DNA of 64,000 bases from a virus. The position numbers were made by a program, and so were the translations under genes. The DNA lies in IMG/VR virus record IMGVR_UViG_3300020578_000011; one strand, given 5' to 3'. Positions 14,344 through 43,919 of the stretch are shown in pieces (positions within the stretch are counted from its first letter, which is position 1; each line of letters starts with the position of its first letter). The notes under the pieces were generated by a model, which saw nothing but the letters and a program-made list of their open reading frames with translations, was not told where the DNA came from and ran no database searches.

Positions 14344-16287
14344 ATGTCATGGTTTGAAGATTTAAAAAAATCAATACAAGACCGTCTTGTAGAAGATATC
14401 GAGCAAATGACCAAAGCAGACGCAGATAAACTTCCAGAGAAGCCACAATCAGAAAATCAAGAATCAGGTCTTGTAAGAGGTAAGGCGATATTAACAGACC
14501 CTTATTTTGAACAAGCAAGTAATAATTATTTTCTTTCAAAAAATAAAATAAGCAGAATATCAAATAGAACTCTTAGAGACATGTCTCAAAGAGATTGGCT
14601 TGTTAGCACAATCTTACAAATAAGAGCAGATACTGTTTTAAGATTTTCAAGACGTCCAGAGCGCAGATACGATATGGGTTTTCGTGTCGTCAAAAGAGAT
14701 CACAGCGAGTCATTGTCTGAACAAGATATTGATAATATAAATATGTTGGAAAGTTATATATATAATTGTGGCAGAACTGAAAATGTCCCCAAAGGACAAG
14801 AAATGCTTTTAGGTGAATTTTTAAAATTAATAGTTAGAGATGGTCTTACTTTTGGATATGTGGCAGTTGAAAAAGTCTTAACAAGAACCGGGGCTCTTCA
14901 TCGCTTCAGACCTCTTCCTGCTGAAACAATGTACTTAATAAATCAAGCAATCAATAAAACAGTTGTAGAAGATCAAGTTAAAACTGCAATCAATATGTAT
15001 CATACTAAAAAAAGCGACAATGATCCAAGGGCGGATGGGTATCTTGCGCCTAGAGAAATAGATTATTATAAGTATGTTCAATTATCAACAGACAATAGAG
15101 TTTTAAATGCCTTTGGTGATGAAGACATGGTGTTTAAATTATTTAATCCACAAAACTATGCTGACTCTAATGGATATTGCATATCTGTAGTTGAGCAGGC
15201 AATCATAATGATAACAAATCATCTAAATATAGAGGCATATAATGCTAATTTTTTTACACATGGATATGCTGCAAGGGGTATTCTTCATTTAAAAGGTGCT
15301 GTTACTCAAAATACTCTTGCTTCTTTTAGAAGACAATTTTACAACACAATATCCGGATCCGCAAATGCTTGGAGAACTCCAATTGTTGCAGGCCTTGATG
15401 ATGTTCAATGGGTTCCAATGTCGGGTTCTGCACGTGAGATGGAGTATATAAATTTTAATTCTCATATAATGAGAGCTATTTGCGCACAATTTCAAATAGA
15501 TCCAATAGAAGTTGGATTAGATTATCTTACAACGGCAAACGGCAGAGCAAGTGCACAAGCTAAAGAATCTGGTCAATTTAAAATAACATACTCTCGTGAA
15601 CGAGGTCTAATTCCCATATTAATGCTTGTTGAAGACTTATTTAATCAAGATATCCTACCTGCTTTAGACAAAGATCTTGCAGATAAATATAAATTTAAAT
15701 TTGTTGGATACACAGATGACACGGCAATGACTGATATAAGTCTTCGTCAGGCACAGATGACAGTTTTTTCTTCAATGAATGATCTTCTTCACAATGAAGA
15801 AAAAACACAAATAAACCACCCCGCTGCAAATCTTCCATTGAATCAATCTTTTTGGAATCTTGTTGAAAAAAACATGACCCGTGGAGAGATTCGTGAATTT
15901 TTCTTTGGAGATAAGGGAGCATCTAAAAGACCAGAGTTGCAATATCTTCCATCGGATCCGGCATTTTTATCTTGGAATCAGTTAATGATGACAATTAATG
16001 TTCAACAACAACAAAAAGAAATACAAAAACAACAACAGCAACAACAGCAACAAATGCAACAACAACAAATAAAACTTCAAGAAAGTCAAGAACAAAGAGA
16101 ACAAGAAGCGCATGATCATCAGATATCTGAGTCTAAACAAGAGCAAGCAAACTCTGTTGTAAGATCTCAAGATCTTTCTAGTCTACAAGATTTGGCTAGA
16201 CAATACGGTGCCACAAAAGCAACAAACATAGGCGGAAAAGAATTAAAAAATCCAATAAATACCCTTGAAGAAATAGAAAAAAAATAA
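14344..16287 (+). CDS. Portal protein
   Basis: Follows TerL. YNANFFTHG..RGIL, SGSANAWRTP, REMEY, ICAQFQIDPIEVG, GLIPIL. Gln-rich tail. Confidence 0.9.
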   Translation: MSWFEDLKKSIQDRLVEDIEQMTKADADKLPEKPQSENQESGLVRGKAILTDPYFEQASNNYFLSKNKISRISNRTLRDMSQRDWLVSTILQIRADTVLRFSRRPERRYDMGFRVVKRDHSESLSEQDIDNINMLESYIYNCGRTENVPKGQEMLLGEFLKLIVRDGLTFGYVAVEKVLTRTGALHRFRPLPAETMYLINQAINKTVVEDQVKTAINMYHTKKSDNDPRADGYLAPREIDYYKYVQLSTDNRVLNAFGDEDMVFKLFNPQNYADSNGYCISVVEQAIIMITNHLNIEAYNANFFTHGYAARGILHLKGAVTQNTLASFRRQFYNTISGSANAWRTPIVAGLDDVQWVPMSGSAREMEYINFNSHIMRAICAQFQIDPIEVGLDYLTTANGRASAQAKESGQFKITYSRERGLIPILMLVEDLFNQDILPALDKDLADKYKFKFVGYTDDTAMTDISLRQAQMTVFSSMNDLLHNEEKTQINHPAANLPLNQSFWNLVEKNMTRGEIREFFFGDKGASKRPELQYLPSDPAFLSWNQLMMTINVQQQQKEIQKQQQQQQQQMQQQQIKLQESQEQREQEAHDHQISESKQEQANSVVRSQDLSSLQDLARQYGATKATNIGGKELKNPINTLEEIEKK

Positions 16288-18429: not shown

Positions 18430-19311
18430 ATGGCTACTAAATTTGATGCGGTTGCAGGATCTGAGTTAAGAGACATTCAAGGAGAAATTCTAGATGTCAA
18501 AGGCGCAGATATTTCAGAATTAGAAGCTGGTCAAGGAATTGTTAACGACAACCATAGCAATAAGCTACCCGATGTCATCGGTAGAGTAACTGGTGCAAAA
18601 AAAATATTTAAAGTAGAAGATTGCGAAAGTGATCGTCAAAAATATTTTTGGAATAAAATAAAAGCTCCATATATATATGTTACAGGTGAACTTTTTGACG
18701 ATGAAGACCATAGATCAGCAAGGGCAGCGGCGGCTATATTAAGACATCAGCACAAAACAGATTCTCCACTTAAGCTAAAGTGCTCCGTAGAAGGAGGTAT
18801 AGTAGAAAGAGGCGAGAAAGACGATAGAATTTTAAAAAGAACAAAAATTAAAGGTTTAGCATTGACCTTTACTCCAGCCAATAATGCAACTCTTGTTGAG
18901 GGAGTTGATTTAAATAAAAGCAATAATCCACAAGAATTTGAATTAATAAAATCAATATCTCATCTAGCGAGAAAAGATGTTCCCTCTTTTATAGAAATGG
19001 CTGATACATTATCTGAAATTAAAATATTATCAAATGTAGAAAAAATAAAAGAAACAATATTAACTTTAAAAAAAAATAACATAAATAAAGCATTAGTCGC
19101 TGGATATGGCTCAGCAGGATCTCCGACAAGCCTAACTGGCGGCGGCGTTTTTCAAACTGAATCTATTGATACAAAATCAAATAAAAATCAGTATATAGAA
19201 TGTCCATCATGTGGTAAAGAGCAACCATATGTTGTATATCAAGTTAAATGTCGATCTTGTAATAAGCATTTTCCATTTGACACATTAGCTAAGTTCTTTA
19301 TAAATAAATAG
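18430..19311 (+). CDS. Prohead protease with C-terminal Zn ribbon
   Basis: RDIQGEIL, NDNH, CSVEG (catalytic Ser), LALTFTPAN; C-terminal CPSC...CRSC; lies before scaffold and MCP. Confidence 0.8.
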   Translation: MATKFDAVAGSELRDIQGEILDVKGADISELEAGQGIVNDNHSNKLPDVIGRVTGAKKIFKVEDCESDRQKYFWNKIKAPYIYVTGELFDDEDHRSARAAAAILRHQHKTDSPLKLKCSVEGGIVERGEKDDRILKRTKIKGLALTFTPANNATLVEGVDLNKSNNPQEFELIKSISHLARKDVPSFIEMADTLSEIKILSNVEKIKETILTLKKNNINKALVAGYGSAGSPTSLTGGGVFQTESIDTKSNKNQYIECPSCGKEQPYVVYQVKCRSCNKHFPFDTLAKFFINK

Positions 19312-19813: not shown

Positions 19814-20596
19814 ATGACTACAAAATTAAGCAAAAGTCTCGCCGATCTCATTGATGAAACTCTAGCTGAAATCGAAGAACTAAAAAAGTCTGATCGTTTT
19901 TCTGCTGAAGAAATCGAACTTGGAGAAAAGTCAGCACAAGGCGGAATGGCTAAGGGCGACGAAGAGGACGATGAGAAAGACGAAGACGAAGACGAAGACG
20001 AAGAAGCTAAGAAAGCAGAAGACGACGAAGACGAAGACGACGAAGAGCATGAAGAAGAAGATGAAGCCAAAAAAGCTGAAGAAGAATGCGAAAAAGCAGA
20101 AGCTGAAATGGCCAAGGCTGAAGATGAGTGCGAGAAAGCAGAGCATGCTTATTCAAAAGCGCTTAAAAAGCGTGAGATGTGTAAAGCAGAACTTGAGCAT
20201 AAACTCAAGAAAAAAGAGATGAAAAAACCTCACTGGGCTAAGAAATCAGAAGGTGTCAATCTCATGGTCAAAGAAGAAAAAGAGATGAAGAAGTCACTTG
20301 CAAAATCAATTGACGAAAGAATCTCACCTCTTGAGACCAAACTTTCTCAAGTTTTAGATGTTGTTAAACAACTTGCAGATACCCCATTCCCACAGCGTGG
20401 ACACACGTATCGTCAAATCCAGCCTCTTGCAAAAAGCACTGGAGATGTAGAACCTCTTAATAAGACAGCTGTTCTTAATAAACTTCTTGATCTTAAGAAG
20501 ACTGGAACAGATGTCGATGCTGCAGATGTGATTCGTGTAGAAGTTGGTGGAAATGGTGATCTTAACGAAGTTGCTAACAAATATGGAATTAAATAA
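19814..20596 (+). CDS. Capsid scaffold protein
   Basis: Highly charged E/D/K coiled coil with many xK-S/A sites, directly before the MCP. Confidence 0.7.
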   Translation: MTTKLSKSLADLIDETLAEIEELKKSDRFSAEEIELGEKSAQGGMAKGDEEDDEKDEDEDEDEEAKKAEDDEDEDDEEHEEEDEAKKAEEECEKAEAEMAKAEDECEKAEHAYSKALKKREMCKAELEHKLKKKEMKKPHWAKKSEGVNLMVKEEKEMKKSLAKSIDERISPLETKLSQVLDVVKQLADTPFPQRGHTYRQIQPLAKSTGDVEPLNKTAVLNKLLDLKKTGTDVDAADVIRVEVGGNGDLNEVANKYGIK

Positions 20597-20607
20597 GGAG
20601 AAAAATA

Positions 20608-22062
20608 ATGTACGCTGACGCTTTTAATCAGATTATGCAGGGAATTGAACAAGGAGTGGTCTCTCAAGAAGAGATTGAAAACCTTAATAAGGCACTAGTA
20701 GCGGGATACGGTGGTGCTGGTCGTCCTACTGATCTAACCTATGGCGGTGTTATTCAGACTGAGTCACTTGAATCAACTCTTAAAGTTGTTACATTTGACA
20801 TGAAGAATCTTAAACTCTGGCCAGCAATCACAATCGACAAGGCTTATAACCTATTCGAACAATATAACCGTCTTGTTGGATATGGTTCAGATACTTCGCC
20901 CTATATTGCTGAAGGCGGAGCTGGACAAGAATCAGATTCAACATATGTACGTGACGGACAGCGCATCGTGTTCTTCAGCAAGCGTCGTAAGGTTTCGCAT
21001 CAGATGACTCTTGTTCGCACAACCGTTGGAGACGTTGTAGCTCAACAGGCTAAAGAAGGAACAATGGACCTTCTTAAAGATGTTGAACGTGAACTATACT
21101 GGGGACATGCTCACTTTGCAGATGCATCTGGTGCTCAATCAGGTGCAACAGCTGATCTTCCAGTTAATTCACTTGCCATGAATGGCCTTCTACAACAAAT
21201 CCTTAAGGGTGATCGTGATAGCCAATTTACTTCAAAAGATTTTGAAGGTTGGGGCGCTGAGTCATCATCTGTTGTGAAGGATCTTGCTGGTCTTTCTTTT
21301 GCACAAGACGATGTTGAAGAACTTGCAGTTCGTGCTCTTGAAAATTTCGGAGCTCCAGATCAGCTTCACGCTGAGCCCGCTGCTGTTTCTACATTCGTTC
21401 GTCAATTTTATCCACAGTTCCGTTCTGAACCAGGTCTTGCTGGTCAAACTGTTGGTTATGACGTAGCAAATGTCACCACTACTGCAGGAAAAATTGCACT
21501 TAAACCAAGTCTTTTCCTACGTCCGCGCCAACAAGTTCGTCCAGCAGCTGCTTCAGCTTCTGCTCCTTCTGTTGCGGGTCTAAGTGTTTCTGGAGCTGCT
21601 GCAGGATCAGGATCAGCTCTTTCAGCTGGTAGTTATCATTATGCAGTAACTTTTGTTAATGACTTTGGCGAATCAGCTCCAATTTTAACTTCAGCACCAG
21701 TTTCAGTTACAGCTGGACAAGTTGTTGAATTGACTCTAGCTGGTTCTGTTCCATCTTCTGTCAAGCACATGAAGGTATATCGTGCCGCAAGTGGAGCTGC
21801 AGCTTCAACGGCGCAGTTTATCTCAAATCATCGCGTGGGACTCTCCGCTATTAAAGATGCTGGTGCCAAGCGCCCTGGTCTTGGTGAAGCATTCCTTCTT
21901 GATATGCGTGCTGAAACAATGAAGTTTAAGCAACTTGCTCCTCTTGCTAAGATGAATCTTGCTGTGGTCACAACTGCACTTGAGTTTCTCTTGCTCATGT
22001 ACGGAGCACTATTTGTTTACGCACCGCGATTCAATTGCGTAATGCGAAATGTTGGTAAGTAA
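20608..22062 (+). CDS. Major capsid protein (Herelleviridae-like) with inserted Ig-like domain
   Basis: LNK-ALVAGYG...ESLESTL N-arm (compare VxK-SFTTGYG), EQYNR, ELYWG, QLAPLAKMNLA, LMYGAL..YAP. Insert 'YHYAVTFVNDFGESAP...KVYR'. Confidence 0.9.
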   Translation: MYADAFNQIMQGIEQGVVSQEEIENLNKALVAGYGGAGRPTDLTYGGVIQTESLESTLKVVTFDMKNLKLWPAITIDKAYNLFEQYNRLVGYGSDTSPYIAEGGAGQESDSTYVRDGQRIVFFSKRRKVSHQMTLVRTTVGDVVAQQAKEGTMDLLKDVERELYWGHAHFADASGAQSGATADLPVNSLAMNGLLQQILKGDRDSQFTSKDFEGWGAESSSVVKDLAGLSFAQDDVEELAVRALENFGAPDQLHAEPAAVSTFVRQFYPQFRSEPGLAGQTVGYDVANVTTTAGKIALKPSLFLRPRQQVRPAAASASAPSVAGLSVSGAAAGSGSALSAGSYHYAVTFVNDFGESAPILTSAPVSVTAGQVVELTLAGSVPSSVKHMKVYRAASGAAASTAQFISNHRVGLSAIKDAGAKRPGLGEAFLLDMRAETMKFKQLAPLAKMNLAVVTTALEFLLLMYGALFVYAPRFNCVMRNVGK

Positions 22063-23622: not shown

Positions 23623-24738
23623 ATGCCTGTTGGAGTTATAAAAACAAAAGCAGATCATAAAAAATGGAAAAAAGCAAAAAAGATTGTCGAAGAACAACAC
23701 GGCGAAATACGCTGGCCTTTGGTCATGCACATATATCAACAAATGGCTAAAGATGACGAACCAAAAGATAAAAATGTTTTAATTGAAAGAGCATTAGATA
23801 AACAAGGCAGAAAAGTCGTAATTCCACAAGAGGTTCATGATGTGTTAAAACCAATGTGGGAGAGAGATAAAGATAAATTATTAACACCAGAACAAAAACA
23901 AAAATTAGAATCAATAAAACAAGCAAAACAAAGACGTTCTGAATTTAAAATAGTAAAATCAGCAGAAGAATTAAATTATGTAGAAAGTTCTTTAAAAAAA
24001 ATAAAGCAAGAACTAGATGTTTTTTTTATTTTAGAAAAAGATGAAAAATCTGGATCAGGAGGATGGAAACCACCATCTGGTTTTGACCCCAAGACCCACC
24101 CAGACACAAGCGCATTAATGCTTATTCATGGATTAAATCCACGTGAAGCTTCTTTTATGTCTGGTGCTCATACTTCTAATGAGTATTCTAGAGGTAGGTA
24201 CTTCAGACCAACCCCTCTATCTGAAGGAATGCTTGAACATGCTAAAAGAGTAGCTAAACAAAAATTTGAAGAACATGAGCAAAAAAGAAGAGAAACTGCA
24301 GATCCGGCTCAAAATCCAGATTTATTTTTACAACACAATGCTCAAAGTGTTCACAAGGGATTTAATGGTAATTTTCAAGATGATTTAAAGAATTTTAAAG
24401 AATCTGATGAATTTAAAAATTTATCACAATCTGATAGACCTGGCAGAATCATGCAATGGAAAGCTGATTGGCAAAAACAAAACTTAGAAAATCAAAAACA
24501 ATCAGCCGCAAAAGCAGCTGGACTGCATAGTGAATTGGCAGATCATGCAAACACAGAACGAGCTAAAAAATTAATTGAGCAACGTGAAAACATATTAAGA
24601 GGCGGAGAAGGAGTTTCTGATTCTTCTTTTTCTGATAAGGTTAAAAGAGACACGCCAGATCATAGTGTAGATGAAGATTTAAGCGACGAAGACATGGAAG
24701 ATATAAAAAATCTCGAGGAAGATGATTATGGACGATAA
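23623..24738 (+). CDS. Putative internal head protein
   Basis: N-terminal 'KW.KAK...WPLVMHIYQQM' phage motif; MAK-D, IVK-S and LEK-D sites. Confidence 0.55.
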   Translation: MPVGVIKTKADHKKWKKAKKIVEEQHGEIRWPLVMHIYQQMAKDDEPKDKNVLIERALDKQGRKVVIPQEVHDVLKPMWERDKDKLLTPEQKQKLESIKQAKQRRSEFKIVKSAEELNYVESSLKKIKQELDVFFILEKDEKSGSGGWKPPSGFDPKTHPDTSALMLIHGLNPREASFMSGAHTSNEYSRGRYFRPTPLSEGMLEHAKRVAKQKFEEHEQKRRETADPAQNPDLFLQHNAQSVHKGFNGNFQDDLKNFKESDEFKNLSQSDRPGRIMQWKADWQKQNLENQKQSAAKAAGLHSELADHANTERAKKLIEQRENILRGGEGVSDSSFSDKVKRDTPDHSVDEDLSDEDMEDIKNLEEDDYGR

Positions 24739-25456
24739 TACTATACATAAATATTTAGTAAGTAATTATATGCCATTAATGATTGGTGTTATAAGAAAAA
24801 TGAAAAATAAGGGACTGATACCGCAAGATATGTCTCATTTGAGTCCAGATGAGTTATTTCTTGATCTTTATGAACCAGCTGTTCATGGTTTGATGAAGTC
24901 AATTCATACTTATGATCCTAATAAACTATCTTTAAAAACCGGTAATAAAAAAAGTTTTATAGCACATGCTTGGAGCACGATAAGTGGAATAGTATCCGAT
25001 CATCTTAAAAATAAAAACATAGCATCTGCAGATGTGAATTTAGCTAGAATTAATCAAGCTAAAAAAGAAAACGCATCAACTCAAACTATTGGTATTAAAG
25101 GACAAGGCATAGGTAGAGAGGTAGCAGAACATCTAGGCGGAACTGTTGGAGAAGAAGGAGAGGGGGTCGGTGGAGTTTCAGTTATTAGAAATCCAGAGCA
25201 AGAATTTGCAACAAGACTATCTCCAGAAGCTAAAAATATCCTCCAAGCAAAAATAGATAAAGCAAAAGCTAAACTTGGAGAAAAAACACAAACATCGTCA
25301 GATCAACCACCCGCCTTACCTTCACAGGTAAAGGAACCTTCTTCAACAGAGCCTCAAAAACCAAAGTTAATAATAAGACGCATGGCAAAACCAGATCAAG
25401 TTGATCGCATGGAAAGAATAGATGCTGCAAAAGCAGCATCTAAGAAGCCGGAGTAA
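24728..25456 (+). CDS. Sigma70 region 2-only protein
   Basis: 'LVSNYMPLM...DLYEPAVHGLMKSIHTYDP...SFIAHAWSTISGIVSDHLK' follows the FliA-type region 2 pattern; no region 4. Confidence 0.65.
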   Translation: MDDNTIHKYLVSNYMPLMIGVIRKMKNKGLIPQDMSHLSPDELFLDLYEPAVHGLMKSIHTYDPNKLSLKTGNKKSFIAHAWSTISGIVSDHLKNKNIASADVNLARINQAKKENASTQTIGIKGQGIGREVAEHLGGTVGEEGEGVGGVSVIRNPEQEFATRLSPEAKNILQAKIDKAKAKLGEKTQTSSDQPPALPSQVKEPSSTEPQKPKLIIRRMAKPDQVDRMERIDAAKAASKKPE

Positions 25457-25459
25457 TAA

Positions 25460-26293
25460 ATGTCAATTACAGATTCTCAATACAATCCGCCGTTTCCTCA
25501 TGCTGAGCTGAATCAAGAAACACCTCATCCAGGGCGATATCTATCGCTTCCAACTGCTCAGACTTTAAGAAACACTAGTCTATTTGGAATACCGTTAAGA
25601 TCTTCTTTGACAAATCAAGAAATGAGTGATGCTACTTTAGAAGATTATATTTTAAAATCAATATCTCAATTAGAGCACGAGTTAAACATATTCATAACAC
25701 CTGTTCAATTTGAAGAGCGACATGATTATATTCGTAAGTTGTTTCAAAATTCTTATGCTTTTTTAAAATTAAATAATGCTCCAATTTTAAATGTTCAACA
25801 AGTTAGACTTAGTTTTAGCAACCAACAAGATCCACAACCAGCTTTTATAGAATTTCCATTAGAACATGTTTATGTGGATGCTCAAGAAGGTGGAATAAGA
25901 CTTGTTCCAGCGTATGGGACATCTGTTTCTGGTTTTTTATTATCTGCCTTTGCTGGTGCGCAGATGCATGCTTTAATAGCAGCTGGATTAGATGTTTTTC
26001 CAGGAGCCGTTAGAGTTAGATACAGAGCAGGCTTTGATAAAGATAAGGTGCCTGCTGTTATAGTTGGAATAGTAGAAAAACAAGCAGCATTGTTTGCACT
26101 TACGACAATTGCACCACTCATATTTCCGTATAATTCAGTAAGCATAGGCATAGACGGCGTTAGCCAAGGCGTCGGTACACTTGGGCCTAATTTCTTACAA
26201 GCAAGAATACAGGAACTTCGTCAACAAATACAAGAAGAAAAAGAAGCAGCTAAGACATATTATTTAAAACGTACTTTGATTGATTTTATTTAA
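25460..26293 (+). CDS. Head-tail adaptor/neck protein
   Basis: LEHELNI, ERHDY, VRYRAGF..DKVP, SIGIDGVSQ. Confidence 0.7.
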   Translation: MSITDSQYNPPFPHAELNQETPHPGRYLSLPTAQTLRNTSLFGIPLRSSLTNQEMSDATLEDYILKSISQLEHELNIFITPVQFEERHDYIRKLFQNSYAFLKLNNAPILNVQQVRLSFSNQQDPQPAFIEFPLEHVYVDAQEGGIRLVPAYGTSVSGFLLSAFAGAQMHALIAAGLDVFPGAVRVRYRAGFDKDKVPAVIVGIVEKQAALFALTTIAPLIFPYNSVSIGIDGVSQGVGTLGPNFLQARIQELRQQIQEEKEAAKTYYLKRTLIDFI

Positions 26294-26302
26294 AGGTGTA
26301 AA

Positions 26303-26992
26303 ATGACTGTTAAAAAAAAGTCTAAGAAAATAAATAAAGTTGAGATAAAAAATCCAGATGGTTCTATTTCTAGATACCCAGGTAAAGAACCGCTGATCAA
26401 ACCTAAAAAAGATCTTTCTAAAACAATTTTAGAAAGATGGGAACTTATAAAAGCTGCATTAAATCACGAAGACTCGTTTTTGCCAATGATAAGTCGACAA
26501 GCGGTTGTTGATATGAATAAGACGCCCGAGCAAGATGCCAAAGAGCAAGTGCCAGCGCAGCAAGAACAAGAATCTCAAGAAGACAAGCCTCAAGAAGACA
26601 AACCTCAAGAAGAGCAGCCTCAAGAAGAGCAAGGATCAGACAGCCAAGATCCTGAATACGATGAACAAAAATTAATTGAAATGCTTCAGCAGGAAGGATA
26701 TTCCGATCAGGAAATAGCTCATATAGTTCATGGCCATGTTCCATCTCAACCTTCGCCAGAGGAACTTAAAAATATAGAACAGCATCAAAAACTTAGTCAT
26801 AAAGATGATCTTCATGATGTTACAATTGATCATCAAAAAGCAAACCACGATATAGAGTTGGATCATAAAAAAAGAATGCTAGATCTAGAGCGCGAGCATG
26901 CTAAAAAAGAAAAAGAAATGAGATTAAAGCATTTGGAAGAAGAATTAAAAACAAAATTAGAGCACCTAAAAAATAAACAATCACAACTATGA
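26303..26992 (+). CDS. Putative internal head protein
   Basis: Low-complexity Q/E segment; LSK-T, LIK-A and MNK-T sites. Confidence 0.55.
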   Translation: MTVKKKSKKINKVEIKNPDGSISRYPGKEPLIKPKKDLSKTILERWELIKAALNHEDSFLPMISRQAVVDMNKTPEQDAKEQVPAQQEQESQEDKPQEDKPQEEQPQEEQGSDSQDPEYDEQKLIEMLQQEGYSDQEIAHIVHGHVPSQPSPEELKNIEQHQKLSHKDDLHDVTIDHQKANHDIELDHKKRMLDLEREHAKKEKEMRLKHLEEELKTKLEHLKNKQSQL

Positions 26993-27029
26993 TATTGCTG
27001 TATAATCATATAGTATAAAAAGGTGTCTT

Positions 27030-27983
27030 GTGGAGAGGTTAATTAAATCAAAAAATGGTCAATGGTCATTGATAAAGGTGGCCGATGAAGTTAAAAATAG
27101 AATAGCTGAAAAGGTGTCTAGAATGGCCGAACAAGGTCAGGGAGATGTCAAAGCAAACACCTCAGAAAGCATTTACAACATCCCTAAAGAAGCAAAGGAT
27201 TTCAATCCTCATATTCATTTATTTCATCCCAACGCATCAGATCCTCTTCATAGATTAAATCAAGATGAGTGGCATAGTCATTTTCAAAACATGATGCAAA
27301 ATGATAAATTAAACACTGATCAAATAGATACTCTGGAGGCAGAAAATAAGCGTCGTGACAATGTTATCCACATGGCGAATCAAAAAAAATCAAAAAAACC
27401 AGTCTTTGATCCAAGAGCTATAAAAAGAGGCGAGTCTGATGTAAGATTTGACAATGTAGATTATAAAGTGCGTATAGAAAGAGATTTTGGAGACATAGAT
27501 AGAATGTCTCCCGAAGATAGAGAAAAAATTAAACAACAACACAACCTATCTACAGAAAACATAATGCAAAGAAAAGAACAACAAGAAAAGCAGCAAGCAA
27601 AAAATAAAGAACTTGCAGATAGCCACGCTGCTGAAGTTGAAAGAGTCAAGCATGAAAAGTTTAAAGAAGCTCAAAAATCAATAATGAAAAATTTACCACT
27701 TAACGATAAAAAACAAATGGATGACCTTTATAAAAGAATATCCGGCAGTAAGGATCTTGCAGACAAAATATCAAGATACCTTCACATTGTACATGAAGTC
27801 AAACCAGATGGATCTGTTGCAAATATTTCTTACCATCTTAAAAATCATGCTAGTGAACAGTTAAACGACTTCGTCACATCAATGCGCGGCGACAATGCTC
27901 CGTACACTGAAAATAGATTTGTAGGATTAGACGATGTAAATCCACATGACACACCTAACTTGATTGATAAAAAGGGAGCTTGA
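27030..27983 (+). CDS. Putative head cargo protein with N-terminal KNGQWSL peptide
   Basis: Starts MERLIKSKNGQWSLIK. Confidence 0.6.
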   Translation: MERLIKSKNGQWSLIKVADEVKNRIAEKVSRMAEQGQGDVKANTSESIYNIPKEAKDFNPHIHLFHPNASDPLHRLNQDEWHSHFQNMMQNDKLNTDQIDTLEAENKRRDNVIHMANQKKSKKPVFDPRAIKRGESDVRFDNVDYKVRIERDFGDIDRMSPEDREKIKQQHNLSTENIMQRKEQQEKQQAKNKELADSHAAEVERVKHEKFKEAQKSIMKNLPLNDKKQMDDLYKRISGSKDLADKISRYLHIVHEVKPDGSVANISYHLKNHASEQLNDFVTSMRGDNAPYTENRFVGLDDVNPHDTPNLIDKKGA

Positions 27984-27985
27984 TA

Positions 27986-28534
27986 ATGGAAAAGTTGATA
28001 AAATCAAAAAATGGTCAATGGTCTTTAACAAAAGCAAAAGACTCCTCTGGAGACAACGACAACAACGAGATGCTAATGTCTCAACTTAAGCAGATTGTTC
28101 ACCATGTTAAAGAATTGAATTCAAACATAGATAGATCGGGCAATGAGCCTGATTGGGTAAATGCTAAAATCACAGAGGCAGCAAAAGCATTGTCAGATGT
28201 TGCTCATTATATCGACGGTCTTAAAGATGTTAAAAAGACCGAAGAAATGAAAAAAAATATGAATGATGATATGGAAAAAGAAATAAGAAGATTGCAAGCC
28301 AATAAAGATGCTGCTGGTAACTTTATAAGACCTAGAGTCAAACCCGGTAAAGCAAATAGATTTATGCATGGTGGAGTTCAAGGTTGGAATCTATTTGATG
28401 AAAGAGTAGATGAAAAAATGCAAGGTAAGAAACCTAAAAAAGAGTCAACTGATAAAGCAAAAAGCATTCAACAACCAAATACTAAACCAAAAATAGTAAT
28501 CAGAAGAAAAAAACCTAGCACAACTGAGGAGTGA
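27986..28534 (+). CDS. Putative head cargo protein with N-terminal KNGQWSL peptide
   Basis: Starts MEKLIKSKNGQWSLTK; contains the 'PDWVNAKITEA...VAHY' phage motif. Confidence 0.6.
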   Translation: MEKLIKSKNGQWSLTKAKDSSGDNDNNEMLMSQLKQIVHHVKELNSNIDRSGNEPDWVNAKITEAAKALSDVAHYIDGLKDVKKTEEMKKNMNDDMEKEIRRLQANKDAAGNFIRPRVKPGKANRFMHGGVQGWNLFDERVDEKMQGKKPKKESTDKAKSIQQPNTKPKIVIRRKKPSTTEE

Positions 28535-28537
28535 TTT

Positions 28538-31243
28538 GTGTTTCAGAAGGATGAGGAGACAATCGACGTATTATCGACCCGTCATCTTGGTCTTATTCCA
28601 GAAGGCCATCCTGATCGTAAAAAAATAGCTCAGCATATTAATAATCTAAGAACATCAAATCCAAATGAAGCAAGACGTTTGTATGATCGTTTCATAAGTG
28701 GTGGCGGTAGCTACATCAAAGATAAATCTGAAATTAATATTAAAGTAAATAAATCAGAAAATAATATTAATTTAACTTTAAAAAATCATTTTGAAGGTTC
28801 TTCTACTTCTCCAACTGAGTACCACTATTCGGTTCACAAAAATGGTGATGAAATTGGTCGTGCAATTGTCTTTGATAAAGACCCAAGATCAATACACTCT
28901 CAAGGCAAAGAAGGTGCTTCTTTAAAAGATATAAGAATAAAACCAGAACATCATGGCAAAGGATACTCTGAGCACATAATCAATTCACTTGTTGAAAAAC
29001 ATGGTCCACTTGCGTCCGATAGTAGAGGAAATATATCCGAAGCCGGACATAAGATGTTTAGTAAATATGGTTCTTCAATAAAATCAAAAGAAAATAAAGA
29101 TTTATATATGTTTGGAGGATCTGTGAAAAAATATTTATCTACTGAAAAATTACCTTTGTATTCTGAGTACATAGAACCGCTACAAAAGGGCGAGAAGTTT
29201 CCTCATTTTTTGAATTTCATGGGTAACCACCCTAAAGCTCGAGAAACAGCTCAATGGGTTGATGAAAATATAAAACACAGAAATTTGGCTGAGTTAGCTA
29301 TGCGTCATGCAAAAACTAAGCCAGAGGGTCTTAACGACGAAGAAAAAACTCACATTAAGCACTTTAATGATTCACTGCATATGCCAGAAGTTCAAAAGGC
29401 TGCCGGTTCGATAACAAGTCAGCATGATTTTTCTAGTGGAATTGAGCTATTGAAAGAAGCGGAATCTGCTTATCAAAAAAGACATGCAAAAGAAGCTCCT
29501 ACGTTAGTTTCGACGGAAGGAGAAAAGTTATTAGATTTTGGCGATGGAGTTGGTGTTTATAGACTTCCGTTAAATGCAGACCGTAAAAATAAAAACGAAG
29601 CCACAGCTATGGGCCATTGTGCTACTCCACATAAAGGCGGGGAGTTGTGGTCTATTAGACGTGACCACGGTAATGGAATGGTTGAACCTTTAATATCCAT
29701 ATCGCACGAAGGCGGCTATCTTGGTGAAATGAAAGGAAAACATAATTGGAAGCCATCAGCAAAACATCACGGACATATTGCTAAGTTGTTGGCGTCCGAT
29801 AAAATTAAAGGGTTTGTTGGAGGAGGGTATGCTCCAGAAAGCAACTTTGAAATTTCTGATTTAAGTGAAGGATTTAAGAATAAATTATTAGAATATAAGC
29901 CATCTTTAATTCAAAAAGTTTATAAAGAAAATTTGCCAGAAGGGTTTCAAGGAGACTATAATCATACTCCTGAAATTAAAAGTATTTTTAGTACAAGTGA
30001 TTTAGCTGCTCAACAAAAATATTTAGCAAAAATTAGTGAAAATACGGACCAGCGTAGACGTGTTCTCTGGAGCGCAGCAACAAACCCACACACACACCCA
30101 GACATTCTTCACAAACTAGCAGAAGACTCTGACCAAGATGTTGTCTGGAGCGTATCACATAACCCAAATACACATCCAGATACTCTCCACAAACTAGCAG
30201 AAGACTCTGACTACGGTGTTCTCTGGAGCGTATCAACAAACCCAAATACACATCCAGATACTCTTCACAAACTAGCAGAAGACCCTGGATACGAGTTACG
30301 CGAAAACGTAGCACTACACCCAAATACACATCCAGATACTCTCCACAAACTAGCAGAAGACCCTTATGTTCGCAAAAGCGTAGCAACAAACCCACAATTC
30401 AAAAATTTACCGCTAGAAATACAACAAAAAGTAAGACCACTTGTAAATACACCTATTCAAAAAATTATTGCTATGATTAATGATGGAGAAAATAACCCAG
30501 ACCCTGCTCATGAAGCAACAGAAGAGCTAAAATTACGCCGTCAAGAAAAATACGACAAAATTCTTTCTCCAGAAGGAAACTTAAGTGATATTCAGCATTT
30601 ATCTGAATCACACAATAATAATATTGCAAGACGAGCTAGAAATGAATTAAAACGCAGAGGATTACAAAAATCAGATCTTGAGCATAGTTTAGAATTTGCT
30701 AAAAAATACAAATCTTTAGCCAAGCATGCAGTAGATCAAGGAGACAAAGAAGGTGCTACTAAATATATGAAATCTTTATTAATTCATTTACAAAAAAGTT
30801 ATCAATTTTTAAACAATGAAAGATTTGAAAAATCTCAAAAAAATCACCCTAAAGGTGGTCTTTCTAGAAAAGAAGCTAAAAAACACGGAATACATGCCGG
30901 CATAGAAACACACGATGAAGTTAAGAGAAAAGGTGGAGTAAGCAAACTATCTAACAAAACATCTGCTCGACGTAGAAGTTTTTGTGCTCGCCACTGTGGG
31001 ATGAAGCGCAAGTTTCCTAAAGCATACAAAGATAGGCAGTCAAAAGGAAACAAAGCACTCCGCGTATGGCATTGTGGATCTTGTTCTAATTGGCTTAAGA
31101 AATCAATTGGAGCAGATGATACAATAAAATTCTATGAAGATCAAGACAATTTAATAATAGAATTTGACAATGATGTTCCACATGAAATAGAAACACTTGT
31201 CGTCGCATCTATTCTAGCTAAAGGATTTAAAGAAAATGAATAA
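28538..31243 (+). CDS. Multidomain polyprotein: GNAT-like, PcfJ-like, LRV/HEAT-like repeats, 'RRRSFCAR' (DUF6321-like) domain
   Basis: IKPEHHGKGYS (GNAT motif A); EATAMGHC...WSIR...EMKGKHN; NPNTHPDTLHKLAED repeats; GGL...RRRSFCARHCGMK...NKALRVWHC. Confidence 0.65.
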   Translation: MFQKDEETIDVLSTRHLGLIPEGHPDRKKIAQHINNLRTSNPNEARRLYDRFISGGGSYIKDKSEINIKVNKSENNINLTLKNHFEGSSTSPTEYHYSVHKNGDEIGRAIVFDKDPRSIHSQGKEGASLKDIRIKPEHHGKGYSEHIINSLVEKHGPLASDSRGNISEAGHKMFSKYGSSIKSKENKDLYMFGGSVKKYLSTEKLPLYSEYIEPLQKGEKFPHFLNFMGNHPKARETAQWVDENIKHRNLAELAMRHAKTKPEGLNDEEKTHIKHFNDSLHMPEVQKAAGSITSQHDFSSGIELLKEAESAYQKRHAKEAPTLVSTEGEKLLDFGDGVGVYRLPLNADRKNKNEATAMGHCATPHKGGELWSIRRDHGNGMVEPLISISHEGGYLGEMKGKHNWKPSAKHHGHIAKLLASDKIKGFVGGGYAPESNFEISDLSEGFKNKLLEYKPSLIQKVYKENLPEGFQGDYNHTPEIKSIFSTSDLAAQQKYLAKISENTDQRRRVLWSAATNPHTHPDILHKLAEDSDQDVVWSVSHNPNTHPDTLHKLAEDSDYGVLWSVSTNPNTHPDTLHKLAEDPGYELRENVALHPNTHPDTLHKLAEDPYVRKSVATNPQFKNLPLEIQQKVRPLVNTPIQKIIAMINDGENNPDPAHEATEELKLRRQEKYDKILSPEGNLSDIQHLSESHNNNIARRARNELKRRGLQKSDLEHSLEFAKKYKSLAKHAVDQGDKEGATKYMKSLLIHLQKSYQFLNNERFEKSQKNHPKGGLSRKEAKKHGIHAGIETHDEVKRKGGVSKLSNKTSARRRSFCARHCGMKRKFPKAYKDRQSKGNKALRVWHCGSCSNWLKKSIGADDTIKFYEDQDNLIIEFDNDVPHEIETLVVASILAKGFKENE
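30062..30398 (+). repeat. About 4.5 coding tandem repeats of 78 nt (26-aa LRV-like)
   Basis: Units start at 30062, 30140, 30218, 30296 and 30368. Confidence 0.9.
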
Positions 31244-32180
31244 AGAATTAATAGAACTTTATAAATCAAAACCAGAACTAATAGACGAGCACAAGAAACT
31301 TGTTCAAGTTCTTCGCCACGGCACCGATACTGAACAAAAAAAAGAAGCAGAACGTCAGCTAAAAGAACTTAAAGAAATGTTAAATAAAGAAGAGAAAAAC
31401 TCTGATGATAAAAAAACACACTTGTCTACAGATGGAAAAACCTTTATCAATGGTTCTAGCATTAAAAAAATCTTAGATAGAGGGGTGAAGAATGGAGTGC
31501 AAACAAGAACATATGAAATGCATGATGGATCTGTAAAAGAAGCATACTTTCCCCACTATGAAGAATTAAAAAATTCTCCTAATCATTATCAATTAAGTAA
31601 ACTAACTAAAGAAGAATTAGAAAAAAGATGCTGGGAAGGATACAGACCCGTTGCCGGTAAAAAGCCGTATGAAAAGGGCTCTTGCGAACCTGTGTCAAAG
31701 CAAGAAGTGTTAAAAATAGAAAAAAATGGCCAATGGTCTCTTGATAAGAGCAATAATATAAAACCTTTTGGTGAAAATATATTTGATACTACAGCAAATA
31801 TTCAAAGAAAAGCTAAAAGACTTGGTGAGGTTCAAGAAGGAGTGGGTGCTAATCAAGCTGTTCATCCGTTCACAGGCCTTTGAGGAACTGCTAATGAACA
31901 AGCAAAAAGAAAATCTCAAGAAGACATTGAACAAAGCAAGAAAAAAGTAACTTCATACGATTTTTCTGGCGTCAAGCCAGAGCACCATGCTCAGGTTGTG
32001 GAAAGAATCAAAGCAGGAGAGGGTATCGAGACTTTATCTGAACTTGGTTTGAAACAAATTATAAGCGATTCTGCTAGTGTTAAAAGAAAAGAAAAAGCTA
32101 GTAGAAAAAGAAAAAATAAATCAATTGATTTAGGTGTTCTAAAACTTAAAAAAAAGAAAAAACCTAAAAATAATATATGA
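31236..32180 (+). CDS. Putative head cargo protein (CWxGY and KNGQWSL motifs), interrupted by an in-frame TGA at 31881-31883
   Basis: CWEGYRPVAGKKPYEKGSC and EVLKIEKNGQWSLDKS. The frame stays open for a further 98 sense codons after the TGA. Confidence 0.65.
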
Positions 32181-34670: not shown

Positions 34671-34713
34671 TGATACAATTATCGTATCTTGATCCAAAAG
34701 GAGAGATACGATG
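34671..34713 (+). promoter_or_regulatory. TGATACAAT promoter plus an RBS-sequestering hairpin
   Basis: ATCGTATCT (34681-89) pairs with AGATACGAT (34704-12); the extended stem covers the SD and the start codon. Confidence 0.6.
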
Positions 34714-35754
34714 GCTTTGCAAATTAAAAGTAAATTTATTCAAGATGAAGCAATTGATGGTGATAAACTTAAATTAAAATCAGGTCAAGCTGTCCGCTTG
34801 CGAAAAGCAGACAATACTGAAGTTCGTTTAATTGAACTTGATGAGGCTTCTGGAAAAGTAGAAGTACTTGGTCAACCTATTGCTTTAGAGGCAGCTCTTC
34901 TTCAAGAAGTACAAGATCGCATAGCTGGCGATGATGCACTAGACACAAGATTAGATATTATAGAAGGACCAGATACTCAAGCTGGATCTATTTTAAAAGC
35001 TTTAAAAGATGCAAAAGCATATGTAGATGATGTTGTTGGTGTTTCTTCTACCGTTGTATCTACCTTTGCAAATCTTTCTACCTACATGTCAGATGGAGAT
35101 GCAGCAACTGGCCTTATCAATAGTGTCGGTGCTGTTCGCGATGAGTTAGATGCAACTCAATCTGGTGCTGGATTAAATTCAAACGGTTCCTATTATGCAA
35201 ATGGTTCAGCAAATTATATTGCAGCAGCTGTTTCATTAAAAGATGCTGATAATAAATTAGATGCTGCAATAAAAGCAGAAGAAGCTAGAGCACTAGCGGC
35301 CGAAGCAGCCGAAGCATCTGCTCGCCAAGCTGCAGATTCAGCTCTCCAATCTGATATAGATGCAGAAGAAGCTAGAGCACTAGCAGCCGAAGCAGCTCTC
35401 CAATCTGACATAGATGCAGAAGAAGCTAGAGCGTCAGGCGCAGAGACAGCATTAGATGGCCGCTTGGATGTTTTAGAAGCTCGTCTTTTTCGTAAACAAA
35501 AATTTACATTAGTAGCTCAAGATATCACAAATGGATACGTTGAGCTTTCATTAGAAGCTATGGAAAATTCAATCGTGGCATCTGTTGGTCGTCTAATGAT
35601 ACATGAAGGAGTGGGAGAAGATTTTACTGTTTCTGTTGTTGGTCCAGTTGGAGCTAAAAAAACTCGTATTACATTTGTGGGAAATTTAATTGAACCTAGT
35701 GAAGAAAAATTAGAAGCTGGTGATGTTTTATACGTTCGTTATATGAATGTTTAA
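34711..35754 (+). CDS. Coiled-coil fibre protein
   Basis: [21 protein letters not shown] repeats and a C-terminal beta domain. Confidence 0.7.
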   Translation: MALQIKSKFIQDEAIDGDKLKLKSGQAVRLRKADNTEVRLIELDEASGKVEVLGQPIALEAALLQEVQDRIAGDDALDTRLDIIEGPDTQAGSILKALKDAKAYVDDVVGVSSTVVSTFANLSTYMSDGDAATGLINSVGAVRDELDATQSGAGLNSNGSYYANGSANYIAAAVSLKDADNKLDAAIKAEEARALAAEAAEASARQAADSALQSDIDAEEARALAAEAALQSDIDAEEARASGAETALDGRLDVLEARLFRKQKFTLVAQDITNGYVELSLEAMENSIVASVGRLMIHEGVGEDFTVSVVGPVGAKKTRITFVGNLIEPSEEKLEAGDVLYVRYMNV

Positions 35755-38732: not shown

Positions 38733-41700
38733 ATGTCACAACCTATTTTAAACGCCAAGATAACATTAAATTCAGTTGCTCCTGTCGGTGTTGGTAATAT
38801 TTCTTGGAATGTTAGTTTTTCTGTTTTAGATTTAGAAGGTGTTTTTAGTGGGTTGGATGTTGCTGTTAATGATATTCTTTTACTAGATACATCAGGCGAC
38901 ACACTTGGAACTGTTACTCAATATAAAATTACTAATATTTCTAGCAAAACTTTTGCACAAGTTTCTTGTACTGTTTCGTTAGATGATGACAACGTATCTG
39001 CTCCAGATTTAAATGCAGCATTAGGTTTAGACGGAGCTGTTATTAGACAGACAGCTAACAAACGATTAAACATCGTTCCCGCACCAGGTGTTCAAGGTCT
39101 TCCTGATAAATTTGCTATTTATCCACTCAACTCTAATTCAAAATCAAAAATAGATGTATTAGTTGGAGCTCAAGGAGAAGCTGGTCCACAGGGTCCACAA
39201 GGCGAAATGGGCCCACAAGGCCCACAGGGTCCACAAGGTCCGCAGGGTGAAATAGGTCTGCAAGGTCCTGCCGGAGTAAATGGCTCCAACGGCCAAGATG
39301 GAGCCCAAGGTGAAATGGGCCCACAGGGTCCACAAGGTCCGCAGGGTGAAATAGGTCTGCAAGGTCCTGCCGGAGTAAATGGCTCCAACGGCCAAGATGG
39401 AGCCCAAGGTGAAATGGGCCCACAGGGTCCACAAGGTCCGCAGGGTGAAATAGGTCTGCAAGGTCCTGCCGGAGTAAATGGCTCCAACGGCCAAGATGGA
39501 GCCCAAGGTGAAATGGGCCCACAAGGTCCGCAAGGCGTACAAGGCGAAATGGGTCCACAAGGTCCGCAAGGCGTACAAGGTGCTCAGGGTCTTAAGGGCG
39601 ACAAAGGCGATCAAGGTGAAATTGGTCCACAAGGTCCAGCTGGAGTAGACGGTTTGCCAGGGGCAACTGGTGCAGTTGGTGAAATTGGTCCACAAGGTCC
39701 ACAAGGCGAAATGGGTCCACAAGGTCCACAAGGCGAAATGGGTCCACAGGGTCCACAGGGTTCGCAAGGTCCGGTTGGGTCTGCTGGAGATAGATACCAT
39801 ACTACATCAGTTTCTGAATTTACAATACAAGCAAGTGGTCAGTTTTCTGTAATGACCGATGATTTAGGTTTAGATTATTCCATAGCTCAAACTGTAATTT
39901 TAGCCTATGATCTAAATAATCATCAACATGCAAAAGTAGTTAGTTATAATAAAATAACTGGAGAATTAGTTTTAGAAAGAACAGATTCGTCTGGAAGCGG
40001 TACATATTCTAGTTGGAGTATCAACTTAGATGGAGCAGTGGGAATCGAAGGTCCACAGGGTCCAATGGGCCCACAAGGTCTTCAAGGCGTTCCAGGAATC
40101 CAAGGTCCACAAGGTATTCAAGGTGCCCAGGGCGCAGCAGGAAGCAATGCTGTAATAACAGGTGCGGCTTCTTCTGTTGTTGATAGTGATTTAGATTCAT
40201 TAAAGGTTGTTGTTTCTGATATTTCTGGAAAAATAGATTCTTCATTAGTGTCTGTTGATGAATTGAATCATTTATCTGGTGTTGTTTCACCGCTACAAGC
40301 TCAATTAAATGCTGAAGCATCTGCTCGCCAAGCAGCAGATTCAGCTCTCCAATCTGACATAGATGCAGAAGAAGCTAGAGCACTAGCGGCCGAAGCAGCC
40401 GAAGCATCTGCTCGCCAAGCTGCAGATTCAGCTCTCCAATCTGACATAGATGCAGAAGAAGCTAGAGCACTAGCGGCCGAAGCAGCCGAAGCATCTGCTC
40501 GCCAAGCAGCAGATTCAGCTCTCCAATCTGACATAGATGCAGAAGAAATTAGAGCATTAGCAGCCGAAGCAGCAGAAGCATCTGCTCGCCAAGCAGCAGA
40601 TTCAGCAGAAGCATCTGCTCGCCAAGCAGCAGTTTCTGCTCTTCAGTCTGATATAAATGATGAAGCATCTGCTCGCCAAGCTGCAGATTCAGCAGAAGCA
40701 TCTGCTCGCCAAGCAGCAGATTCAGCTCTCCAATCTGATATAGATGCAGAAGAAGCTAGAGCACTAGCGGCCGAAGCAGCCGAAGCATCTGCACGTCAAG
40801 CAGCAGATTCAGCTCTCCAATCTGATATAGATGCAGAAGAAGCTAGAGCACTAGCAGCCGAAGCAGCTCTTCAATCTGATATAGATGCAGAAGAAATTAG
40901 AGCATTAGCAGCCGAAGCAGCCGAAGCATCTGCTCGCCAAGCTGCAGATTCAGCTCTCCAATCTGACATAGATGCAGAAGAAGCTAGAGCACTAGCAGCT
41001 GAAGCAGCAGAAGCATCAGCTCGTCAAGCAGCAGATTCAGCCGAAGCATCTGCTCGCCAAGCAGCAGATTCAGCTCTCCAATCTGATATAGATGCAGAAG
41101 AAGCTAGAGCACTAGCAGCCGAAGCAGCAGAAGCATCTGCTCGCCAAGCAGCTGATGCAGCAGAAGCATCAGCTCGTCAAGCTGCAGATTCAGCAGAAGC
41201 ATCTGCACGTCAAGCAGCAGATTCAGCTCTCCAATCTGACATAGATGCAGAAGAAATTAGAGCATTAGCAGCCGAAGCAGCTCTTCAGTCTGACATAGAT
41301 GCAGAAATTTTAGCTCGTCAAGCAGCTATATCTCAAGAGGTGTTAGATAGAAATGCAGCAATACAAACTGCAGTGACTGAATCGATAATTCCAAGAACTG
41401 ATGTTACTTATGACTTAGGTAGTCCTACTAAAAGATTTAAGGATCTTTATTTAAGTGGAAATAGTATTATCTTAGGCGATACAATAATTTCCTCAGACGC
41501 TGGTGCATTGGATCTTTCTGCGGGTGCAAAAGTTGGCGGTGTTTTAATAGCATCAACAGATTTTGTAAATGGTGCAATAACTAACTTAGTTGGCGGTGCT
41601 CCTGAGTTATTGAACACATTAAATGAACTTGCTGCTGCAATTAACGATGATGAGAGTTTTGCGACAACCGTTGCAAATAGTATAGCATCTGTTCAATCGG

Positions 41701-43919
41701 GGTTAGATGCAGAAGAAGCTAGAGCACTAGCAGCTGAAGCAGCAGAAGCATCTGCACGTCAAGCAGCAGATACTACTTTGCAAAATGATATAAATGATGA
41801 AGTATCTGCTCGCCAAGCAGCAGATTCAGCAGAAGCATCTGCTCGCCAAGCAGCAGATACTACTTTGCAAAATGATATAAATGATGAAGTATCTGCTCGT
41901 CAAGCGGCAGATACTACTTTGCAAAATGATATAGATGCAGAAGTATCTGCTCGTCAAGCGGCAGATACTACTTTGCAAAACAATATCAACAACAAACAAG
42001 ACACTGTTACAGGTGCTGCAACTTCAGTTGTTTCTTCTGATTTGACAGCTTCTAGAGCAATGGTTTCAGATGCATCTGGTAAAATAGCTGCTTCTTCAGT
42101 AACTTCTACTGAACTTGGGCATTTATCTGGTGTTACTTCTGGAATACAGTCACAGTTAAATGGTAAACAAGCTACTATTACGGGTGCTGCAACTTCAGTT
42201 GTTTCTTCTGATTTGACAGCTTCTAGAGCAATGGTTTCAGATGCATCTGGTAAAATAGCTGCTTCTTCAGTAACTTCTACTGAACTTGGGCATTTATCTG
42301 GTGTAACTTCTGGAATACAGTCACAGTTTAGTTCAGTAAACACATCACTAGGTGGTAAACAAGCTACTATTACGGGTGCTGCAACTTCAGTTGTTTCTTC
42401 TGATTTGACAGCTTCTAGAGCAATGGTTTCAGATGCGCTTGGTAAAATAGCTGCTTCTTCAGTAACTTCTACTGAACTTAGTTATGTTTCTGGTGTAACT
42501 TCTGGAATACAGTCACAGTTAAATGGTAAAGAACCAGCAATTACTGGTGCTGCAACCTCGATTGTTTCTAGTGACTTGTTAGCTTCTAGAGTGGTTGTTT
42601 CAAGTGCCTCTGGCAAGATAACTACTGCTACCTGTACAGCTACTGAACTTAACTATGTTTCTGGTGTTACTTCTGGAATACAGTCGCAGTTTGGTTCAGT
42701 AAACACATCACTAGGTGGTAAACAAGCTACTATTACGGGTGCTGCAACTTCAGTTACAAATAGCGATTTAGTAGCCTCTAGAGCAGTGGTTTCAGATGCA
42801 TCTGGTAAAATAGCTGCTTCTTCAGTAACTTCTACTGAACTTGGCTATGTTTCTGGTGTAACTTCTGGAATACAATCACAGTTAAATGGTAAACAAGCTA
42901 CTATTACGGGTGCTGCAACTTCAGTTGCTTCTAGTGACCTATCTGCATCTTTAGCGCTTGTTTCAAATGCATCTGGTAAAATAGCTGTTTCTTCAGTAAC
43001 TTCTACTGAACTTGGCTATGTTTCTGGTGTAACTTCTGGAATACAATCACAGTTAAATGGTAAACAAGCTACTATTACGGGTGCTGCAACTTCAGTTGCT
43101 TCTAGTGACCTATCTGCATCTTTAGCGCTTGTTTCAAATGCATCTGGTAAAATAGCTGTTTCTTCAGTAACTTCTACTGAACTTGGCTATGTTTCTGGTG
43201 TAACTTCTGGAATACAATCACAGTTAAATGGTAAACAAGCTACTATTACGGGTGCTGCAACTTCAGTTGCTTCTAGTGACCTATCTGCATCTTTAGCGCT
43301 TGTTTCAAATGCATCTGGTAAAATAGCTGTTTCTTCAGTAACTTCTACTGAACTTGGCTATGTTTCTGGTGTAACTTCTGGAATACAATCACAGTTAAAT
43401 GGTAAACAAGCTACTATTACGGGTGCTGCAACTTCAGTTGCTTCTTCTAATTTGACAGCTTCTAGAGCAATGGTTTCAGATTCATCTGGTAAAATAGCTG
43501 CTTCTTCAGTAACTTCTACTGAACTTGGGCATTTATCTGGTGTAACTTCGGCTATTCAAACTCAATTAGATGCAAAAGCTAGCAAAGATGCAAATGGATC
43601 ACTGCAGGCAACTGGTTTTATATATGGAGCAAACTCTATAAATGTTAAAACCGGAGCATATACACTAACTTCTGCTGATAATGGAAAAACAATTGTTGTT
43701 AATAGTGCATCTGCAGTAAATATTACAGTTCCTTCTGGTCTTCCTGCATTTTTCAACTGTATGGTTATTCAAGTAGGAGCAGGTCAAGTTACTATGGTTG
43801 CAAGCAGTACAACATTAAATTCAGCAAATGGTCTTAAGACATCTGCTCAATTTGCAGCGTTGTCATTACTTGCATATGATACTAATATTTTCTGTGTATC
43901 TGGCTCTACTTCTGTTTAA
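38733..43919 (+). CDS. Long tail fibre/appendage (collagen, coiled-coil and 57-aa repeats)
   Basis: Gly-X-Y tracts, EASARQAAD heptads, [21 protein letters not shown], nine 57-aa units, C-terminal [10 protein letters not shown] domain. Confidence 0.85.
39166..39790 (+). repeat. Collagen-coding repeats including a triplicated 99-nt unit
   Basis: ggtgaaataggtctg at ~39246, 39345 and 39444. Confidence 0.9.
40310..41990 (+). repeat. Coiled-coil-coding repeats ([26 protein letters not shown])
   Basis: Many near-identical shuffled DNA blocks; also present at ~35275-35430. Confidence 0.9.
41994..43570 (+). repeat. Nine ~171-nt (57-aa) tandem repeats
   Basis: [12 protein letters not shown]...GIQSQLNG; the units at 42891-43403 are essentially identical. 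Confidence 0.9.

Follow-up and report, generated by a model that had tools for sequence, protein, structure and literature searches.

A portable peptide on unrelated proteins of an uncultured SPO1-like phage clade, a possible capsid-targeting tag

To our knowledge, bacteriophage T4 alone has a well-defined short capsid targeting sequence (CTS), which became a protein-packaging tool; the T4 protease cuts after glutamate in the motif L/I-x-E. T4 internal proteins are diverse apart from the CTS, their one conserved segment, which can also carry foreign proteins into the head (PMC3012670; Mullaney & Black 1996, as cited in PMC10052503). In giant phages, the propeptides of head proteins are removed by the prohead protease (PMC10052503). 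Here we describe a peptide of 15-16 residues with the pattern E-x-L-K-Φ-x-K-N-G-Q-W-S-L-x-K (Φ, hydrophobic), hereafter the tag, that is carried by three unrelated proteins encoded in a 64,000-nucleotide stretch of viral DNA (IMG/VR record IMGVR_UViG_3300020578_000011; the window), and we compare it with these systems as a candidate prohead recruitment signal.

The window has three occurrences of the heptapeptide KNGQWSL, two at the exact N-terminus of a protein (positions 27030 and 27986) and one internal (31704), as the original prediction had placed them, and a six-frame scan of the window found no further copy of the tag. Copy A (MERLIKSKNGQWSLIK, 27030..27077, + strand) forms codons 1-16 of carrier A, a protein of 317 amino acids (aa) without a family match (27030..27983, +), whose GTG is the first possible start downstream of a stop codon. 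Copy B (MEKLIKSKNGQWSLTK, 27986..28033, +) forms codons 1-16 of carrier B (182 aa, 27986..28534, +), which begins with ATG and has an AAGGGAG ribosome-binding site. Copy C (EVLKIEKNGQWSLDK, 31704..31748, +) occupies residues 157-171 of carrier C (215 aa, 31236..31883, +), where it is preceded by a CWEGY/DUF6321-type module and followed by a tail module of the form SNxxxP...N.KRK. KNGQWSL is the sole heptamer common to at least three of the 60 window proteins, and none of 200 within-protein shuffles yielded any heptamer shared by at least three of them. The claims that the rest of each carrier is unrelated and that synonymous codons differ were both borne out: with the motif masked, A, B and C gave no mutual BLASTP match, and 9 of the 48 bases distinguish copy A from copy B, with 6 of the changes synonymous. 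No relatives of carrier A were found in IMG/VR, yet its tag DNA is 81% identical to that of its neighbor B, which suggests that its tag was gained through local duplication.

Carrier B is laid out as the predicted hairpin of the tag (see below), an acidic linker and long helices. In its orthologues the tag is always N-terminal, with Q11, W12, L14 and K16 invariant, and a search of a 5.8-billion-protein set with the N-terminal region returned close B orthologues only. A reading of this region as a ribbon-helix-helix DNA-binding domain was rejected, as the hairpin forms within one chain, precedes an acidic linker and is also found at C-termini. A second short peptide, KPK-[LI]-[IV]-IRR, is common to the C-terminal ends of carrier B (...KPKIVIRRKKP..., window ~28484-28531) and of a mini-sigma-like protein (24722-25456; ...KPKLIIRRMAKP..., window ~25358-25393), and may be another portable motif.

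Relatives of the window phage were found in IMG/VR with a degenerate DNA pattern for the motif and with a capsid-protein search, many contigs being recovered by both. Copies on the clade contigs were counted with a motif profile and relaxed patterns, with the reversed pattern as control. All 15 clade contigs searched carried 1-6 genuine copies, and the reversed pattern gave almost none. The carriers in these relatives belong to at least 12 protein families that are mutually unrelated once the motif is masked; as with the T4 CTS, a short peptide is thus common to unrelated proteins of one phage, in the window on three of them. The tag can be N-terminal, internal or C-terminal: the 109 instances comprise 44 N-terminal and 53 internal copies and 12 that lie within 10 residues of the C-terminus. 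The glycine falls at residue 9-11 in 36 of the 44 N-terminal instances, indicating that the tag begins at the initiator methionine.

The consensus of 98 unique versions is [M/x]-E-x-L-K-Φ-x-K-N-G-Q-W-S-L-x-K, and the next residue is mostly S or A. Counting back from the final lysine as P1, the residues that the search did not force are E at P15 (87%), L/I at P13 (79%) and N at P8 (78%). The L-x-K ending noted for each window copy generalizes: among 71 unique peptides from relatives, anchored on E-x6-NGQW only, P3 is L, I or F in 71 of 71 (16% in background peptides) and P1 is K in 65 of 71 (9% in background peptides). Codons vary and the flanks of the tag cannot be aligned, whereas these residues are conserved, which argues that selection acts on the peptide, as the original prediction had suggested, and agrees with a portable module.

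All full-context matches to the motif lay on contigs of this phage type. Motif-positive contigs without a capsid gene are fragments of ~170-kilobase (kb) phages, as judged by CheckV completeness, and the pattern matches on complete contigs outside the clade were discarded as spurious, context-free chance. Across 185,579 prokaryote species genomes the sole full-context match was a 73-kb contig (L160, JALWTD010000010.1) in a metagenome-assembled genome of Flavobacteriaceae. A capsid protein of the same type (65% identity) marks this as a phage contig, and it provides a weak hint of Flavobacteriaceae as hosts of the clade; one of its open reading frames (ORFs; L160:5296-6279, 314 aa) contains two tag copies. 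Most raw pattern matches in bacterial genomes lacked the upstream context and were set aside, as was a LivJ-type binding-protein family ending in ITVKNGQWTLLK, a coincidental match. A tblastn search of 50,697 phage records with a 20-aa query (E up to 10) found no near-identical tag copy in cultured phages. No mention of the motif was found in the literature, where full-text matches to motif strings were unrelated antimicrobial-peptide papers.

Hydrophobic residues alternate around the N-G turn of the tag, a pattern that suggests a β-hairpin. AlphaFold2 predicts this fold for carrier B, with strands at residues 2-6 and 12-16 (per-residue confidence, pLDDT, ~70-78), and for carrier C, with strands at 159-161 and 167-169 (pLDDT ~55).

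From P3 to P1, and with a small residue at P1', the end of the tag matches the pattern of a junction that the major capsid protein (20608-22062, +) and the prohead protease (18430-19311, +) of the window have in common. Capsid residues 26-55 and protease residues 218-246 both read L/I-N-K followed by ALVAGYG.AG.PT.LT.GGV.QTES. In the capsid protein, L26-N27-K28 (20683..20691, +) would precede a maturation site, K28|A29-LVAGYGG, and in the protease, I218-N219-K220 (19081..19089, +) would be a self-cleavage site before a copy of the capsid N-arm. Judging from general knowledge of HK97-type heads, K|A is probably where a 28-residue propeptide is cut off the capsid protein during maturation, and where the protease cuts itself; our literature search found no measured mature N-terminus of a Herelleviridae capsid protein. 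The junction Φ-x-K|A-[LIM]-x-A-G-[YF]-G-G is kept in both proteins in ~80 relatives, and Bacillus phage SP-10 has the same arrangement. The N-arm (window 20683-20775) is near-copied in the C-terminal part of the protease (19081-19311), where it is followed by a CxxC...CxxC zinc-ribbon-like tail; this mimicry may be the route by which the protease is built into the shell. Many relatives (L056, L064, L088, L104 and others) have the protease-type ...K|ALTAGYGG segment in an ORF of 430-1010 aa, compared with 293 aa here, so the protease is often fused to extra N-terminal domains.

The putative cut site can be separated from the hairpin. The gene C family has the layout helix, CWEGY/DUF6321 module, linker and SNYGPKG...N.KRK module, in which the linker holds either the hairpin or an unrelated insert (~70 residues), and the hairpin-less homologues still have VEK, MEK, IEK, FEK or LKK at the junction with SNYGPKG. 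A 901-aa multi-module protein encoded between B and C (28538..31243, +) is also without the hairpin and keeps V-N-K|S at residues 70-72 (~nt 28745-28753). Its N-terminal domain has an orthologue in a related genome (G005; 58% identity, E = 5e-49) that begins with the tag, and the RLNK|S of that orthologue aligns to the KVNK|S of the hairpin-less protein. The retention of Φ-x-K|S by hairpin-less orthologues argues that this site is the more basic element, to which the hairpin is an add-on with the same site at its end. In the 901-aa protein, a weak GNAT-like domain (Acetyltransf_1, E = 0.025, below threshold), a middle domain and LRV repeats (PF01816, E = 6.7e-15) are joined to a C-terminal DUF6321 module; other clade phages encode these modules as separate tagged proteins, and the 901-aa protein may be a multi-module virion effector. 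The DUF6321 module (PF19846; CWxGY...GKKxxxKGSC) is present in gene C, its homologues and the 901-aa protein, and the tag sits outside it, on either side in different proteins, and is not part of it.

The closest relatives (G003, G004 and L048-L051), whose capsid protein is 83% identical, have gene C broken by an insertion at precisely the tag. The inserted gene, placed at L128:1550-2128 (- strand), encodes a 193-aa endonuclease of the EndoVII/HNH type (phrog_1035, E = 1.7e-14), and the insertion is also present in L048-L051 (~21 kb). The upstream half of the split gene ends in ...VETNGQWSLGK plus six residues, and the downstream half opens with another tag, new and distinct in sequence (MSNEKIITSPNGQWSLVK), that runs straight into SNYGPK; P0020 has an uninterrupted gene C with otherwise the same sequence as the split form. 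A separately translated half needs no polyprotein cut site, yet it has a full hairpin, which points to a recruitment role for a hairpin needed in cis. The split gene is rare comparative evidence for such a need.

We see an even chance that the peptide is a T4-CTS-like prohead recruitment tag that is later removed by the protease. Under this proposal, a portable β-hairpin, the second strand of which ends in the prohead protease site Φ-x-K, would recruit the unrelated proteins to which it is fused to the assembling prohead. It would dock on a head component, or on the protease itself built into the prohead, and a cut after the lysine would free the downstream part; the carriers would end up in the virion. 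N-terminal tags would be removed like the T4 CTS, internal tags would separate two polyprotein modules, and C-terminal tags would remain on the protein. A broader version, which we put forward tentatively and regard as possible though short of probable, is that this position-independent, protease-released cargo-loading hairpin lets the clade put exchangeable modules into the capsid and deliver them together with the DNA, among them the GNAT-like domain, the LRV/DUF6321 proteins, the SbcC-slot proteins described below and others, and that these modules have been fused, split and re-tagged over evolution. Phages would then have a second capsid targeting system, distinct in structure from the first.

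Several observations weigh against a recruitment tag of the T4 kind. Conservation lies on the P' side in the capsid and protease sites and on the P side in the tags, which leaves Φ-x-K and a small residue at P1' as all that they share. The specificity of the protease is unreadable from homology, as it has no Pfam match (U9, S78 and U35 included) and no sequence relatives in the PDB, and matches phrog_1028 only. The whole AlphaFold2 models of B and C are of low confidence (predicted template modeling scores, pTM, 0.18 and 0.24). About 60% of the tag copies occupy internal or C-terminal sites. Many copies, those of the window included, are found 1-15 kb downstream of the capsid gene, in the stretch from adaptor to tail genes, and in relatives one carrier adjoins the protease and another is encoded between the protease and capsid genes; in three related genomes (G001, G002 and G003), however, a tag carrier directly follows an SbcC-like gene and is itself followed by an HNH or RuvC-like gene, and another carrier adjoins thymidylate synthase. 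Linkage to the head module is therefore lost as support for those carriers, and in more distant clade members most copies lie tens of kilobases from the capsid gene. The capsid-targeting analogy of the original prediction thus fits in form, with a module near head genes and a shared junction ending, but strict linkage to the head module is not supported. T4 internal-protein genes are likewise scattered in their genome, and gene position does not settle whether a carrier is present in the virion, so that carriers away from the head genes neither refute nor confirm the original prediction. HNH genes also follow the tagged SbcC-slot genes in L129 and L132.

These neighborhoods bear on an alternative that we consider unlikely, although it survives best among the rivals, namely that the hairpin is an exosite for the protease only, marking proteins for timed activation or inactivation late in infection, in or outside the prohead, so that carriers need not be cargo. 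Carriers located in DNA-metabolism neighborhoods would be expected of such an exosite, as would a Φ-x-K ending integral to the motif, internal copies at module junctions and the ORF with two copies. A preprint reports that phage proteases trigger immunity by the cyclic-oligonucleotide-based antiphage signaling system CBASS (PMC12991175), which would mean protease activity on non-capsid targets. On the other hand, the junctions in the capsid protein, in the protease and at Φ-x-K|SNYGPKG have no hairpin, so the hairpin is not required for recognition of the site, and cutting at the C-terminal copies would free just 1-7 residues. The exosite would overlap with recruitment to the prohead if the protease were the docking partner inside it.

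It is improbable, in our estimate, that the hairpin docks the carriers on another hub, for example the GroEL-like chaperonin of the clade or a host protein, with the terminal lysine as part of the interface and no cut site. The closest related phage encodes a GroEL-like chaperonin (L027:6213-7916; phrog_5725, E = 1.8e-95), the gene being flanked by a methyltransferase-like gene and SbcC-like genes, and the N-terminus of T4 gp23 has been reported to direct proteins to GroEL, as cited in PMC10052503. Position independence would also suit a simple docking peptide. Such docking leaves unexplained both the coincidence of the tag ending with the capsid/protease junction pattern and the Φ-x-K|S kept at the same place by hairpin-less orthologues. 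Least credible of all is that the repeat is kept for its DNA, whether for regulation or as a target of recombination or homing in the shuffling of modules, and gives the carriers no protein function in common: one tag is the exact insertion point of an endonuclease gene, two SbcC-slot carriers are followed by HNH genes and tags mark points of fusion and fission, but most differences between copies are at synonymous positions and the residues are conserved, the nucleotide sequence is not more conserved than the peptide, the tag is always in frame in long ORFs with the reversed-pattern control almost without matches, and the N-terminal copies are anchored at methionine.

The window phage is large and AT-rich (G+C 34%), and contigs recorded with one of its proteins reach 149,336 bases. 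It belongs to a clade of uncultured freshwater phages of ~110-176 kb with an SPO1-like capsid protein. The head genes follow the Herelleviridae-like (SPO1-type) order seen in a comparison with SP-10: portal (14344-16287, phrog_12), protease, an acidic scaffold-like protein with a weak PHROG match only (19814-20596) and capsid protein (phrog_752). The capsid junction L-x-K|A-x-x-A-G-Y, mimicked in the protease, is also of the Herelleviridae type. The nearest cultured capsid protein is that of SP-10, at ~31% identity, and no DNA similarity to window positions 26000-32000 was found in cultured phages. The carriers A, B and C and the 901-aa protein are encoded immediately downstream of an adaptor-like gene (25460-26293, phrog_772), where the equivalent region of SP-10 has neck genes only. 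Further downstream, neighboring large late proteins have long identical peptide stretches in common (34711-35754 with 38733-43919, and 43956-48830 with 48891-51326), including NTRQRIVKIDKTTAAEVDA blocks in repeat, which looks like an exchange of fiber-like modules.

If the recruitment proposal is true, the tag would be a second, unrelated one with another protease specificity, meaning that cargo loading by a tag plus a cut site evolved more than once. The injected proteins of uncultured phages could then be listed from sequence alone, and a 16-residue handle would be at hand for protein encapsidation in HK97/SPO1-type heads.

Among known systems, the closest in form is the CTS of the T4 proteins IPI, IPII, IPIII and Alt, which is likewise a short peptide, the only conserved part of diverse proteins, and ends at a prohead protease site, as the tag would if Φ-x-K is cut. 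In T4, P1 is glutamate and the CTS is N-terminal only, whereas here P1 is lysine, 60% of the copies are internal or C-terminal, the tag is a predicted β-hairpin with an NG turn, and the head is of the SPO1/HK97 type with a separate scaffold. The tag has no sequence likeness to the T4 CTS, and the protease has no U9 match that would relate it to the gp21-type (Peptidase_U9) enzyme; the two tags are not homologous, and their likeness would be one of function, by analogy only. Encapsulin cargo-loading peptides are short and portable, occur at either end of unrelated cargo and bind the inside of an HK97-fold shell. They resemble the tag in being short and portable on unrelated proteins, and differ in being uncleaved, in having other sequences and in serving a bacterial compartment instead of a virus. 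The C-terminal targeting tail of the HK97 protease and the N-terminal peptide common to the scaffold and capsid protein of staphylococcal phage 80alpha are confined to core head proteins, unlike the tag, which is spread across a dozen unrelated accessory proteins. Among the phiKZ-like giant phages, the SPN3US protease gp245 acts on head and ejection proteins; many head proteins have propeptides that are removed at a three-residue motif, and gp245 also cuts itself at its C-terminal end (PMC10052503), as we propose for the protease here; its propeptides, in contrast, are 20-254 residues long, have no shared portable peptide and are cut after glutamate.

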